NCBI GenBank assembly: GCA_028873125.1
Contig: JAGWMQ010000003.1
Coordinates: forward strand, 15,295-79,294
DNA from: Verrucomicrobiota bacterium
Lineage (GTDB): Bacteria > Verrucomicrobiota > Verrucomicrobiia > Limisphaerales > UBA11358
Direction of reading: 5' to 3'
DNA: 64,000 bases
The position numbers and the translations under genes were made by a program. Positions 19,256 through 22,042 of the stretch are shown piece after piece. Under the pieces are notes generated by a model, which was given only the letters and a program-made list of their open reading frames with translations, was not told the origin of the DNA and made no database searches. Numbering within the stretch: the stretch's first letter is position 1; each line of letters opens with the position of its first letter.

Positions 19256-22042
19256 ATGCCGGGTCCGAACCCTTCCAACAATCAGCGCGCAGCCGACCTG
19301 GTGCGCGAGGCGGCGACCCGGGAGGTTTCCGAAGTCCTGCAATCGCTCGGCACCTCGCCGGCCGGCCTGTCCGAGGAAGAGGCGGCGGCGCGGTTGGAGC
19401 ACTACGGCCCCAACGAGGTGGCCCACGAGAAAAAGAATCCGTGGTTGCACCGGCTCTGGGTCGCCGTCCGCAATCCCCTGGTGATCCTGCTGACGGTCCT
19501 GGCCATTGCCTCGTTTGTCACCTACCTGGACAACCCGCCCGGTCAGCGGGACATTTCCGAATTTTACGCCGGCATCGTCATGCTCGTCATGGTGGCATTG
19601 GGCGTCTCGCTGCGTTTTATCCAGGAGACGCGGGCCGACAACGCCGCGGCCAAACTAAAGGCGATGATCAAGGTCACCGCGACCGTCATCCGCGACGGCC
19701 AGCCGCGGGAAATTCCGCTCCAGCAACTCGTGCCCGGCGACGTGGTGAAGTTGTCGGCGGGCGACATGATTCCCGGCGACGTGCGCCTCCTTTCCGCCAA
19801 GGACCTGTTCATCATTCAAGCCACGCTGACCGGCGAGTCGTTGCCGGTGGAGAAGACCGACGCCCGCGATCCGCGCGCCAACGTCTCGTCCCTGGAACAC
19901 ACCAACATTTGTTTCCTGGGCACCAGCGTGGAGAGCGGCGCGGCGACGGCCCTCATCGTCGCCACCGGCGAGCGGACTTACTTTGGGAAAATGGCCCGCA
20001 GCCTCGCCGGGCAGCCGATGGAGACGGCCTTCGATCGCGGCGTGCAAAAATTCGTCTGGCTGATGCTCACCTTCATGCTGGTGATGGTGCCGATGGTGTT
20101 CCTCCTCAACGGCCTCCTCAAGCACAACTGGAAGGACGCCTTTTTCTTCGCGCTGGCGGTCGCCGTTGGTCTCACGCCGGAAATGCTGCCAATGATCGTG
20201 TCGGTGTGCCTGTCCAAGGGGGCGCTGGCGATGTCGAAGAAAAAGGTCATCGTCAAGAAGCTCAATTCCATCCAGAACTTCGGCGCCATGGACGTGCTGT
20301 GCACCGACAAGACCGGCACACTGACGATTGACCACGTCATCCTCGAATTGCACTGCGACGTGTTCAAAAACGAAAGTGAGAGCGTCCTGCGCGACGCCTA
20401 CCTCATCAGCCACTTCCAGACGGGCCTGAAAAACCTCCTCGACCGCGCGGTGCTGCGCCATAAGGAGCTGCACAAGGAGATGGGTCTCGAGAAATACAAA
20501 ATGGTGGACGAAATCCCGTTCGACTTTTCGCGCCGGATGATGTCCGTGGCCATCCAGCGGCCGGATGGCGAGCGGGAATTGCTGACCAAGGGCGCGCCGG
20601 AGGCGGTGTTTGCCCGATGCACGCATTTTGAGAGCGACGGCGAGATTTTTCCGATGGAGCCGATCCTTACCGGCGATCTCGTCCAGCAGGTGAATGAATT
20701 GAGCGAGGACGGTTTCCGTGTGCTGGCGGTGGCGACGAAAAAACTGGGGAGCGCACGCGCCCCGCGTGCGCCGTTTGGCGCCCCGCCAAACGAATCGGGC
20801 GCGCCGGAAGTTGCCGGCGAGGCTCCGGCAACCGCACGCGAGGCGCGTGCGCTCCCCACGATCTCCAAGGCCGACGAGCGCGATCTGGTTTTGACCGGCT
20901 ACCTGGCGTTTCTCGATCCGCCGAAAGACACGGCTGCCAAGGCCATCGAGGCGTTGCGGCAGCACGGCGTCACCGTCAAGGTGCTCACCGGCGACAACGA
21001 CCTGGTCACGCGCAAGGTGTGCAGCGAGGTCGGTATTCACGCGGAAAAAATCCTGATTGGAAGCCAGGTGGAAAATTGGTCCGACGAACAACTCGCGAAG
21101 GAAGTCGAAACGACGGACGTTTTCGCGCGGCTTTCGCCGTCGCACAAGAAGCGCGTCGTCCAGGCGCTTCAGAAAAAAGGACACGTCGTGGGGTTCATGG
21201 GCGACGGCATCAACGACGCGCCCGCGCTGCGCGCCGCCGATGTGGGCATTTCCGTGGACAATGCCGTGGACATCGCCAAGGAATCCGCGGACATGATTCT
21301 GCTGGAAAAGAGCCTGATGGTGCTGGAGGAGGGGGTGCTGGAAGGCCGCAAGGTGTTCGTGAACATCCTGAAATACATCCGCATGGGCGCCAGTTCCAAC
21401 TTCGGCAACATGTTCAGCGTGCTGGGCGCGAGCGCCTGGCTGCCGTTCCTGCCCATGCAGCCCATCCAGGTGCTCACCAACAACCTGCTCTACGATTTCT
21501 CCCAGGTGCCGATCCCGACCGACAACGTCGGCGAGCAGCAAATCGCCAAGCCCCGGCCCTGGGCCATGGGCGAGATCGCGAAATTCATCGTTTTCATCGG
21601 CCCCATCAGCTCCATCTTCGACTACACAACGTATTGCCTGATGTGGTTTTTTTTCAAATGCAGCAGCCTGGGCCTCGTTCCGCCCACGCCGGAACTGGCC
21701 GCGCGGTTTCTCCATCCGGTGGACGCCGACCACAACTACGCCGCCGCGCTGTTCAGCACCGGCTGGTTCGTCGAATCGTTGATGACCCAGACGCTCATCG
21801 TCCACGTCATCCGCACCAACCTGATTCCGTTTCTGCAATCGCGCGCGAGCTGGCAACTGACCATGACGACCCTCCTCATCATCGGCCTCGGCGCCTGGCT
21901 GCCGTTTTCGCCGGTGGCCCGGTTTCTGGGATTCGTGCCGCTGCCCTGGCAGTTCTGGCCATTTCTGGCCCTGACGCTGATGTGCTATGTCGCCCTGACC
22001 CAAGGCATCAAAACGTGGCTGATCCGCAAGGCCTGGGTCTAG
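19256..22042 (+). CDS. mgtA: Magnesium-translocating P-type ATPase
   Basis: TGESLPVEK, DVLCTDKTGTLT, MGDGINDAPALRAADVGISV, and the MgtA-type C-terminal TM bundle. 928 aa. Confidence 0.95.
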   Translation: MPGPNPSNNQRAADLVREAATREVSEVLQSLGTSPAGLSEEEAAARLEHYGPNEVAHEKKNPWLHRLWVAVRNPLVILLTVLAIASFVTYLDNPPGQRDISEFYAGIVMLVMVALGVSLRFIQETRADNAAAKLKAMIKVTATVIRDGQPREIPLQQLVPGDVVKLSAGDMIPGDVRLLSAKDLFIIQATLTGESLPVEKTDARDPRANVSSLEHTNICFLGTSVESGAATALIVATGERTYFGKMARSLAGQPMETAFDRGVQKFVWLMLTFMLVMVPMVFLLNGLLKHNWKDAFFFALAVAVGLTPEMLPMIVSVCLSKGALAMSKKKVIVKKLNSIQNFGAMDVLCTDKTGTLTIDHVILELHCDVFKNESESVLRDAYLISHFQTGLKNLLDRAVLRHKELHKEMGLEKYKMVDEIPFDFSRRMMSVAIQRPDGERELLTKGAPEAVFARCTHFESDGEIFPMEPILTGDLVQQVNELSEDGFRVLAVATKKLGSARAPRAPFGAPPNESGAPEVAGEAPATAREARALPTISKADERDLVLTGYLAFLDPPKDTAAKAIEALRQHGVTVKVLTGDNDLVTRKVCSEVGIHAEKILIGSQVENWSDEQLAKEVETTDVFARLSPSHKKRVVQALQKKGHVVGFMGDGINDAPALRAADVGISVDNAVDIAKESADMILLEKSLMVLEEGVLEGRKVFVNILKYIRMGASSNFGNMFSVLGASAWLPFLPMQPIQVLTNNLLYDFSQVPIPTDNVGEQQIAKPRPWAMGEIAKFIVFIGPISSIFDYTTYCLMWFFFKCSSLGLVPPTPELAARFLHPVDADHNYAAALFSTGWFVESLMTQTLIVHVIRTNLIPFLQSRASWQLTMTTLLIIGLGAWLPFSPVARFLGFVPLPWQFWPFLALTLMCYVALTQGIKTWLIRKAWV
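20746..20857. repeat. Intragenic structured palindromic element, copy D (in mgtA)
   Basis: Perfect 16-bp terminal inverted repeat ggggagcgcacgcgcc / ggcgcgtgcgctcccc. Internal hairpins gtttggcg-ccc-cgccaaac and ttgccgg-cgaggct-ccggcaa. Confidence 0.85.

Follow-up and report, generated by a model that had tools for sequence, protein, structure and literature searches.

A REPIN-like element in frame in mgtA of a Verrucomicrobiota bacterium, and the RAYT units that share its ends

The palindromic elements of Rickettsia (RPEs), which Ogata and colleagues reportedly described in 2000 (cited in PMC1779305 and PMC10969869), are said to be palindromes of 100-150 bp that stand in frame in housekeeping genes and are translated with them. 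They are AT-rich and recur across many genes, and to our knowledge no transposase has been identified for them. Here we analyse a palindromic element in mgtA, a gene for a magnesium-translocating P-type ATPase, in 64,000 nucleotides of a Verrucomicrobiota bacterium (assembly GCA_028873125.1, contig JAGWMQ010000003.1); this whole stretch is called the window below. Three further copies of the same family lie in the valS gene of the window, and we name the family after the tag at its ends, GGGGAGC. The element was first picked out by a first-pass annotation that had only the sequence to work from, and we follow up its claims.

A second system for comparison, and the closest one known, is REPIN-RAYT, in which doublets of repetitive extragenic palindromic (REP) sequences form hairpins and are mobilised by REP-associated tyrosine transposases (RAYTs) (Bertels & Rainey 2011, PMC3116915; PMC3337134). 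A third lies closer in phylogeny. Di Nocera et al. 2013 (PMC3733652) describe REP dimers inside open reading frames (ORFs), where they contribute 20-30 aa; these are most numerous in the verrucomicrobium Opitutus terrae, and their host genes include those for tRNA synthetases, DnaE, UvrA and helicases. The same paper describes RAYTs, called 'TIRYT/TIRtron', with long GGGGWSAS inverted repeats, some of which overlap ORF ends. The motif of our element, GGGGAGCG, comes closest to this GGGGWSAS motif, with one mismatch. The family described here spans several verrucomicrobial orders, and it is set against the O. terrae families by description only. Full-length RAYTs in frame in alaS or metH, which we report below, were not found in the available parts of the paper.

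Like an RPE, the classic functional analogue, the present element is a palindromic repeat in frame in mgtA and valS and, elsewhere, in genes for AlaRS, MetH, DnaE, Mfd and HrpB, with translation deduced from the frame. It differs from RPEs in phylum and in sequence family, and in that its cognate RAYT can be identified. That it belongs to one of the families RPE-1 to RPE-10 is implausible, given the Verrucomicrobiota host and the GC-rich composition. [quoted passage not shown] However, IS200/IS605 ends are not mutual inverted repeats and insertion takes place beside a fixed tetra- or pentanucleotide, whereas the ends here are inverted repeats and only a pyrimidine on one side and a purine on the other (Y/R) are conserved outside them. 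In the literature that we covered, which was incomplete, no description was found of a GGGGAGC family or of in-frame RAYTs in alaS or metH. The GGGGAGC element is a new family, of a kind already known from the in-gene repeats of Rickettsia and Opitutus.

The insertion in mgtA

The identity of the host gene is clear. Its product, annotated as "HAD-IC family P-type ATPase", scores 1104 bits against NCBIfam TIGR01524 and 1128 bits against PRK15122, with a break in the profile match near residue ~500, and it matches the solved E. coli MgtA (8uy7) with a phmmer E-value of 2.5e-265. The alignment with 8uy7 ends at query residue 499 (E. coli 522) and restarts at query residue 537 (E. coli 528), which exposes the extra segment directly. 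The first-pass annotation had deduced such a segment by comparison with an E. coli sequence; the sequence it gave proves right, and the segment is real, but its predicted size of 35-37 aa does not stand. The window protein has a net 33 aa more than close homologues and ~32 aa more than the E. coli protein.

A search for empty sites had also been proposed, and such sites turn out to be the rule. We took the nearest 120 listed MgtA proteins (77-100% identity, the window protein included), in 119 of which the loop is readable. In 117 of these 119 (77-86% identity) the loop is short and reads KKLG-xQTTF-TKADE. The region from RVLAVAT to FLDPPK comprises 37 or 38 residues in these 117 homologues and 70 in the window protein (P0001) and one other (P0003), the only two of the 119 in which the element was found. 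At the DNA level, comparison with three empty mgtA alleles shows CTG GGA CAG CAA ACC ACG TTT where the filled allele has CTG GGG AGC ... CTC CCC ACG ATC; 109-112 nt substitute for 10-13 nt of the ancestral loop, a net increase of 99 nt or 33 codons. The filled allele of P0003 is present in two assemblies made independently, L120 and L121, of which JGI and ENA supplied one each. Its recurrence in these and in the window implies that the insertion is not an assembly artefact. On these alignments the mgtA segment is an insertion rather than an ancestral loop, and it adds about 33 aa to a variable loop of the MgtA nucleotide-binding domain. An AlphaFold2 model of the window protein, built with 28 close homologues, was too poor to place the loop (mean predicted local distance difference test score, pLDDT, 37.7).

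The element itself is visibly GC-rich, and its parts are listed in Table 1. The perfect 16-nt terminal inverted repeat noted at first pass is confirmed (17 nt if T20745 and A20858 are counted), and the exact terminal 16-mer occurs twice in the window, once on each strand, both times at an element end. The repeat reaches one base past GGGG/CCCC across the family, the flank logo of which has Y at -1 and R at +1. There are four perfect internal hairpins: the two inner ones, which had already been named, and in addition one terminal hairpin at each end. The arms form a 43-nt inverted repeat that is 79% complementary, with a terminal hairpin at each end. The predicted fold of the whole element is one long branched hairpin, with a folding energy of -59.4 kcal/mol as DNA (z = -9.2; 0 of 200 shuffles as good) and -90.3 kcal/mol as RNA (z = -8.6; no shuffle matched). 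No T-run was seen after the stem, implying that the element is not an intrinsic terminator, and an Rfam scan of window positions 14000-23000 at E <= 1 returned zero matches. The peptide originally read from the element, GSARAPRAPFGAPPNESGAPEVAGEAPATAREARALP, is correct.

The family and its RAYT units

In the window the family profile finds only these four copies, one in mgtA and three in valS. We then scanned one genome per species with an end-to-end pattern, which gives counts that are lower bounds, and obtained at least 119 further loci in genome contigs, about 108 of these loci being in Verrucomicrobiota metagenome-assembled genomes (MAGs). The proposed search with the terminus thus leads almost exclusively to Verrucomicrobiota, and to many unrelated host genes. 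Carriers among the matches listed belong to Limisphaerales, Chthoniobacterales, Opitutales, Akkermansiaceae and Udaeobacter, and among the same matches 13 or more loci come from one MAG, CAYHFE01, and 8 or more from another, DASRBR01. The same pattern found 0 copies in 2.9 million viral contigs. Together, the alignment, the empty sites and the family search support the original suggestion that the segment belongs to an insertion family and is neither specific to ValRS nor ancestral in MgtA.

Family copies lie both between and within genes. Of 122 copies, 35 sit inside open frames at a depth of at least 80 aa, and 27 of these 35 are in the same frame as the mgtA copy, giving peptides that run GSA...ALP or similar. 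Pfam recognised a family in all nine host ORFs submitted to it (AlaRS, MetH, ValRS, DnaE twice, Mfd, HrpB and two large DUF-domain proteins, one also with a cytochrome c domain), most of them with host domains on either side of the insert. Because the host ORFs stay open and homologous on both sides, the element appears to be translated. We considered whether the element is open specifically in one frame and rejected this, as 18-26% of copies have a stop codon in each of the six frames. With stops in about one-fifth of copies per frame, the frame bias of intragenic copies is attributed to a selective filter or to inheritance of the RAYT frame rather than to an intrinsic property.

An alignment of 124 distinct copies shows the family tag GGGGAGC followed by a terminal hairpin in which positions 8-14 pair with 18-24. 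The stem pairs 10-22, 11-21 and 12-20, the three that the search pattern did not fix, covary: they are paired in 91-98% of copies at the left end and 82-88% at the right, compared with 40-72% in shuffles (43-72% for the left end), and CG, GC, AT and GT pairs all occur. As judged from this covariation, the terminal hairpin is under structural constraint.

A Y1-transposase-like gene near an empty mgtA allele prompted us to search the loci for such genes. This revealed full-length units of 577-581 bp that carry a RAYT between ends matching the mgtA termini. In locus L097 a single unit, running from GGGGAGCGC (1964) through the RAYT to GCGCTCCCC (2552), encodes a 157-aa domain in frame in alaS. 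In L029 (1462-2240) the RAYT domain lies between two element copies, in frame between the two halves of metH, and in L005 (~1274-2010, minus strand) it occupies the same alaS site as in L097, again with element copies flanking. Against NCBIfam NF047646 (REP-associated tyrosine transposase; cutoff 80) the RAYT domain reaches 79.8 and 80.4 bits, the match covering profile positions 4-145 of 146, and both the HUH motif (MPDHxHLL) and the tyrosine (Y-I-x-x-N-P) are conserved.

The ends of these proteins tie them to the mgtA copy. A RAYT profile search gave at least 4317 relatives, the best 120 of which are mostly stand-alone proteins of 190-270 aa with the JGI name RayT. Almost all of the best 120 start ...GSARASRAxSGASPE...RYSKRRLPHF and end ...SSAGAPKTAREARALP (also ...APKTAREARALP...), which are the element ends translated in the mgtA frame (GSARASRA...RAYT...AREARALP). 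In L125 and L126 the inverted repeats lie within the RAYT ORF, at 10039 and 10607-10615, with the start and stop codons outside them. Their agreement with the mgtA termini is 23/24 nt for the left repeat and 22-24/25 nt for the right one. When the first 56 and the last 56 nt of the 577-bp L125 unit are put together, the mgtA element can be aligned with them over its full length, with matches at 83-87 of 113-115 positions in either orientation and at 23/24 of the first 24 nt. This alignment implies that the mgtA copy is the two ends of a RAYT unit joined together, with the gene missing.

Such units recur in host genes. A search for the alaS-RAYT junction found, among the matches listed, dozens of protein clusters (90% identity) that combine AlaRS or MetH with Y1_Tnp; they come from several verrucomicrobial orders, and at NCBI many carry the label 'alanine--tRNA ligase, partial' or '-related'. 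The RAYT of L056 was rejected as a further link: the REP on its flanks is another one, of the GTAG type, and the element is 1.1 kb away.

Several other features of the RAYT loci deserve mention. In the alaS of L005 an element precedes the RAYT, and directly upstream of this element positions 1950-2055 (minus strand) hold 6-7 tandem copies of a 15-nt terminus (GGGGAGCGTTTCTGT and variants), read as GSVSV/GNASV. In L125 (9129-11562) and L126 (9120-11565), two different MAGs, a stand-alone RAYT sits at the same place in a pilus-like operon with the order PilM, Amuc_1100-family protein, RAYT, 313-aa protein, secretin. It starts 3 nt past the end of the upstream gene and overlaps the next gene by 4 nt, a placement that looks like vertical inheritance with translational coupling. 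Finally, L123 (4400-4540) and L124 (near 1856) have a more distant Y1 transposase gene of 140 aa followed by a palindromic element of ~120 nt, the ends of which, CGGAGCGCGGCTGTGTC...GACACAGCCGCGCTCCG, are related to the GGGGAGC terminus yet distinct from it; this suggests that several RAYT/repeat pairs exist in these genomes.

Origin of the mgtA copy

We consider it probable that the mgtA segment is a mobile element of REPIN-like type, non-autonomous and mobilised in trans, which represents a RAYT element in its short form. The parallels with REPIN-RAYT are several. Two inverted REP-type hairpin ends and a spacer form one hairpin of ~110-130 nt; in related genomes (L097, L029, L005, L125 and L126) these ends are found on either side of one HUH/Y1 transposase gene; short copies appear to be numerous per genome, and the family is chromosomal, with none in viral contigs; and the hairpin is kept through compensatory change.

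Recognition of hairpins on single-stranded DNA, cleavage at a tag and insertion without target duplication have precedent in RAYT and IS200/IS605 systems (PMC3116915, PMC3479197, PMC6006769). In our element each end consists of the GGGGAGC tag, a GC-rich hairpin of 7-9 bp and a second hairpin, and the two ends are inverted and joined without a gene between them. By analogy, a RAYT produced elsewhere in the genome would recognise the terminal hairpins on single-stranded DNA, cut beside the tag and join the short element into a new site, leaving the target unduplicated; in mgtA, the landing site would have been the variable loop of the nucleotide-binding domain. Intragenic copies would survive only if they kept the frame open, and the copies that remain are mostly in the RAYT frame (xxG GGG AGC GCx), in which either orientation encodes a peptide rich in Gly, Ser, Ala, Pro and Arg, running from GSA to ALP. 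Selection would in this way filter intragenic copies for a benign, flexible loop rich in Gly, Ser, Ala and Pro. The mgtA copy is most likely a tolerated passenger with no function of its own.

A number of observations weigh against this explanation. The tag is GGGGAGC rather than the GTAG or CGTC of REPINs, and neither of those two stands at either end of the mgtA copy. By definition REPINs lie outside genes, whereas a large share of the copies here is intragenic and in frame, as are 4 of 4 in the window, where intergenic copies number 0 of 4. The stop codons in all six frames, mentioned above, count against it as well, and tblastn found no RAYT gene in the 64-kb window. Mobilisation by a RAYT is, for the GGGGAGC family, an extension from what is known of RAYTs and of IS200/IS605 transposases. 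The mgtA site offers no clean pair of empty and filled alleles: the 10-13 nt of ancestral loop (QQT) are lost and the next-but-one codon has changed from TTT to ATC, and no target-site duplication was seen at the junctions when filled and empty alleles were compared. The two filled alleles, moreover, are not sisters. Each groups with empty alleles in the protein tree, and in protein quartets 18-29 sites oppose their pairing while 10-14 favour it. A further difference from REPIN-RAYT is that the RAYT frame here passes through both ends, with the start and stop codons outside.

The two filled alleles nevertheless agree in their boundaries, in an F-to-I change and in a T-to-C change of the left hairpin loop, while their upstream synteny differs. 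Shared boundaries in alleles that are not sisters mean either recurrent insertion at one site or exchange of a short patch. In sliding windows the identity of P0001 and P0003 is slightly higher near the insertion (74/80 compared with 69-70), a rise explained by four boundary columns. The window copy (20746-20857) and that of L120 (11468-11579) have their central ~63 nt in opposite orientations. The loops of the outer hairpins, CCC at the left and AGG at the right, are oriented alike in both, the inner CCC-loop hairpin sits at the opposite end in L120 with its loop reverse-complemented, and the window hairpin GTTGCCGG-CGAGGCT-CCGGCAAC appears in L120 as GTTGTCGGCG-CCT-CGCCGACAAC, with a compensated C-G to T-A change. 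This arrangement may reflect a flip in place between the inner inverted arms, and two source copies with swapped inner hairpins would give the same pattern.

The short form could also have arisen where it now stands, from a full-length RAYT unit that once occupied mgtA in frame and from which an internal deletion removed the transposase, so that the short form itself never transposed. The mgtA element is indeed the left plus the right end of a RAYT unit, and full-length units stand in frame today in alaS, metH and apparently dnaE. At the PHP-domain site of dnaE the insert appears to be short in L017 and L026 and RAYT-bearing in P0194 (flanking peptides judged by eye), and short and long forms occur together at one locus in L029 and in L005. 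However, a RAYT-sized insert at the mgtA site is found in 0 of the 120 listed homologues (loops of 37, 38 or 70 residues), a Y1_Tnp domain is recorded for none of them, and the apparent abundance of short copies within genomes, with 13 loci or more in one MAG, is explained more easily by copying of the short form. We think such an origin unlikely for the mgtA copy.

It is quite improbable that the host selected the segment as a structural signal in mgtA, acting in ribosome pausing, RNase III cleavage, or replication or recombination. The very stable RNA fold would fit such a role, as would stems that are perfect although the gene differs by ~15% from its relatives at the nucleotide level, and the compensated stem change between the two filled alleles. 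But almost all of the nearest readable homologues (117/119) do without the element, the same family occurs in many unrelated genes and between genes, and there is neither a T-run after the stem nor an Rfam match. Conservation of the hairpins is equally expected from recognition by a transposase or from a young copy.

Perfect terminal inverted repeats, small size and the lack of coding capacity of its own would also suit a classical MITE, moved by cut-and-paste by a DDE transposase that recognises the 16-nt repeats. We give this explanation very little credence. There is no target-site duplication at the one site with comparable filled and empty alleles; the family flanks show only Y(-1)/R(+1), an inverted symmetry rather than a direct repeat; and the sole gene found between such ends encodes a Y1/HUH transposase (directly at three loci, and also for the majority of the 120 listed RAYT proteins). 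Covarying subterminal hairpins are, in addition, a hallmark of HUH-type recognition.

An ancestral or lineage-specific MgtA loop under protein selection would agree with the open frame and the intact gene, but it is refuted as far as sequence data can do so, since empty sites dominate, it is the DNA rather than the peptide that is conserved and symmetric, and the same DNA occurs in valS and at more than 100 other loci; an assembly artefact is contradicted by three independent assemblies, and we see practically no chance of either.

Beyond the mobile-element explanation of the mgtA copy, the full-length units invite a wider proposal, which we hold tentatively and with more doubt than belief: that the whole RAYT family is built for life inside reading frames, the transposase being made as an internal domain of an essential enzyme. 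The RAYT ends lack start and stop codons of their own and are read in the transposase frame, and full-length units lie in frame in essential genes in several verrucomicrobial orders, with dnaE apparently among the hosts. On this proposal there would be no splicing, and the host gene would shelter the unit from deletion much as it does an intein. The mgtA copy and other short derivatives would have inherited ends that do no harm whichever way they are translated, and inversion of the mgtA copy's centre between its inverted arms may also take place in situ.

Further repeats in the window and wider meaning

The three valS copies (Table 1) all lie on the coding strand in the frame xxG GGG AGC/AAC GCx, so the mgtA element was rightly described as a fourth copy in the same reading frame. 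Their terminal hairpin has GCGACCG where the mgtA copy has GCACGCG, which places the mgtA copy, by its stem sequence, in another subfamily. The site of valS copy 1 is also occupied in L009, and that of copy 2 is filled in L037, L039, L076 and L083 by copies with different hairpin stems.

Table 1. Features of the window (coordinates count from its first base)
Feature	Position	Strand	Details
mgtA, magnesium-translocating P-type ATPase	19256..22042	+	928 aa; intact ORF; DKTGT, TGDN and GDGINDAP motifs
REPIN-like element in mgtA	20745..20858	+	112 nt from GGGG to CCCC; 114 nt (38 codons) with flanking T/A
In-frame reading of the mgtA element	20745..20858	+	(L)GSARAPRAPFGAPPNESGAPEVAGEAPATAREARALP(T); family-profile nhmmer E = 1.8e-16
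Left terminal inverted repeat	20746..20761	+	GGGGAGCGCACGCGCC; contains family-wide tag GGGGAGC; family consensus GGGGAGCGC
Right terminal inverted repeat	20842..20857	+	GGCGCGTGCGCTCCCC
Left terminal REP-like hairpin	20751..20771 (20751-59/20763-71)	+	GCGCACGCG-CCC-CGCGTGCGC
Inner hairpin	20772..20792 (20772-80/20784-92)	+	CGTTTGGCG-CCC-CGCCAAACG
Inner hairpin	20810..20832 (20810-17/20825-32)	+	GTTGCCGG-CGAGGCT-CCGGCAAC
Right terminal REP-like hairpin	20833..20851 (20833-40/20844-51)	+	CGCACGCG-AGG-CGCGTGCG
valS, valine-tRNA ligase	14276..17587	+	1103 aa against 860-position profile; PRK05729 1055 bits, residues 23-1097 on profile positions 2-859
valS copy 1	14959..15073	+	right end decayed; read as GSATVPVADSGVSPESSSRAGDPIGATPIGAGETPPLR; nhmmer E = 1.1e-16
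valS copy 2	15601..15727	+	read as GSATVPVANSGVAPESSPDKFKVAEQALDATPNAARETRALP
valS copy 3	16765..16891	+	read as GNARVPRADSGVAPESSSDNHNLEERASGATPDATTGTVALP

In a syntenic relative (L122, GCA_035945675.1), valS (1-2739) holds other inserts at two of the three sites, ...SAQTPAVENQSRLTSAATE... and EDDAVGRASSRAGSSVASPHQ, and unrelated sequence at the third; a fourth site has GDASSPNRASGDEGVAT. Judged from their peptides only, these inserts resemble other GC-rich palindromic families, which suggests turnover at fixed permissive sites. The window valS also has a stretch of lower GC content at 15840-16110 (47-51% compared with ~60%), which codes for a long variable segment between HRIPVW and QDPDVLDTW (KKMFGGGIPNSNPL...TTTTTVVTALTYDAHGAHALNDAGF) that is entirely unlike the corresponding segment of L122.

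Finally, a second repeat family is present in the window. At 59410-59470 a different, 61-nt palindrome, GTTTGGAGCGCGGCGACGTGTCGCCTCTTT-C-AAAGCGCGGACATGTCCGCGCACTCCAAAC, lies in frame in a trehalase gene (ORF 58326-60392), where it is read as LERGDVSPLSKRGHVRALQ and splits the Pfam Trehalase match into two stretches. This makes trehalase the third host gene in the window with an in-frame palindrome.

The GGGGAGC family explains why ValRS, MgtA and many large Verrucomicrobiota proteins are longer than their homologues, and why annotation pipelines label some host proteins "partial", "-related" or with generic names. It also supplies a concrete candidate transposase for in-frame palindromic insertions, in contrast to the Rickettsia case, for which we know of no identified enzyme, and it indicates that REPIN-type elements are not necessarily extragenic. 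Of the leads that emerge, the way in which full-length RAYT units are built to be read through in frame is the most interesting. If that design is borne out, it would represent a new strategy for mobile elements, persistence in essential genes without splicing, and it would provide ready-made flexible linkers at permissive sites in proteins.

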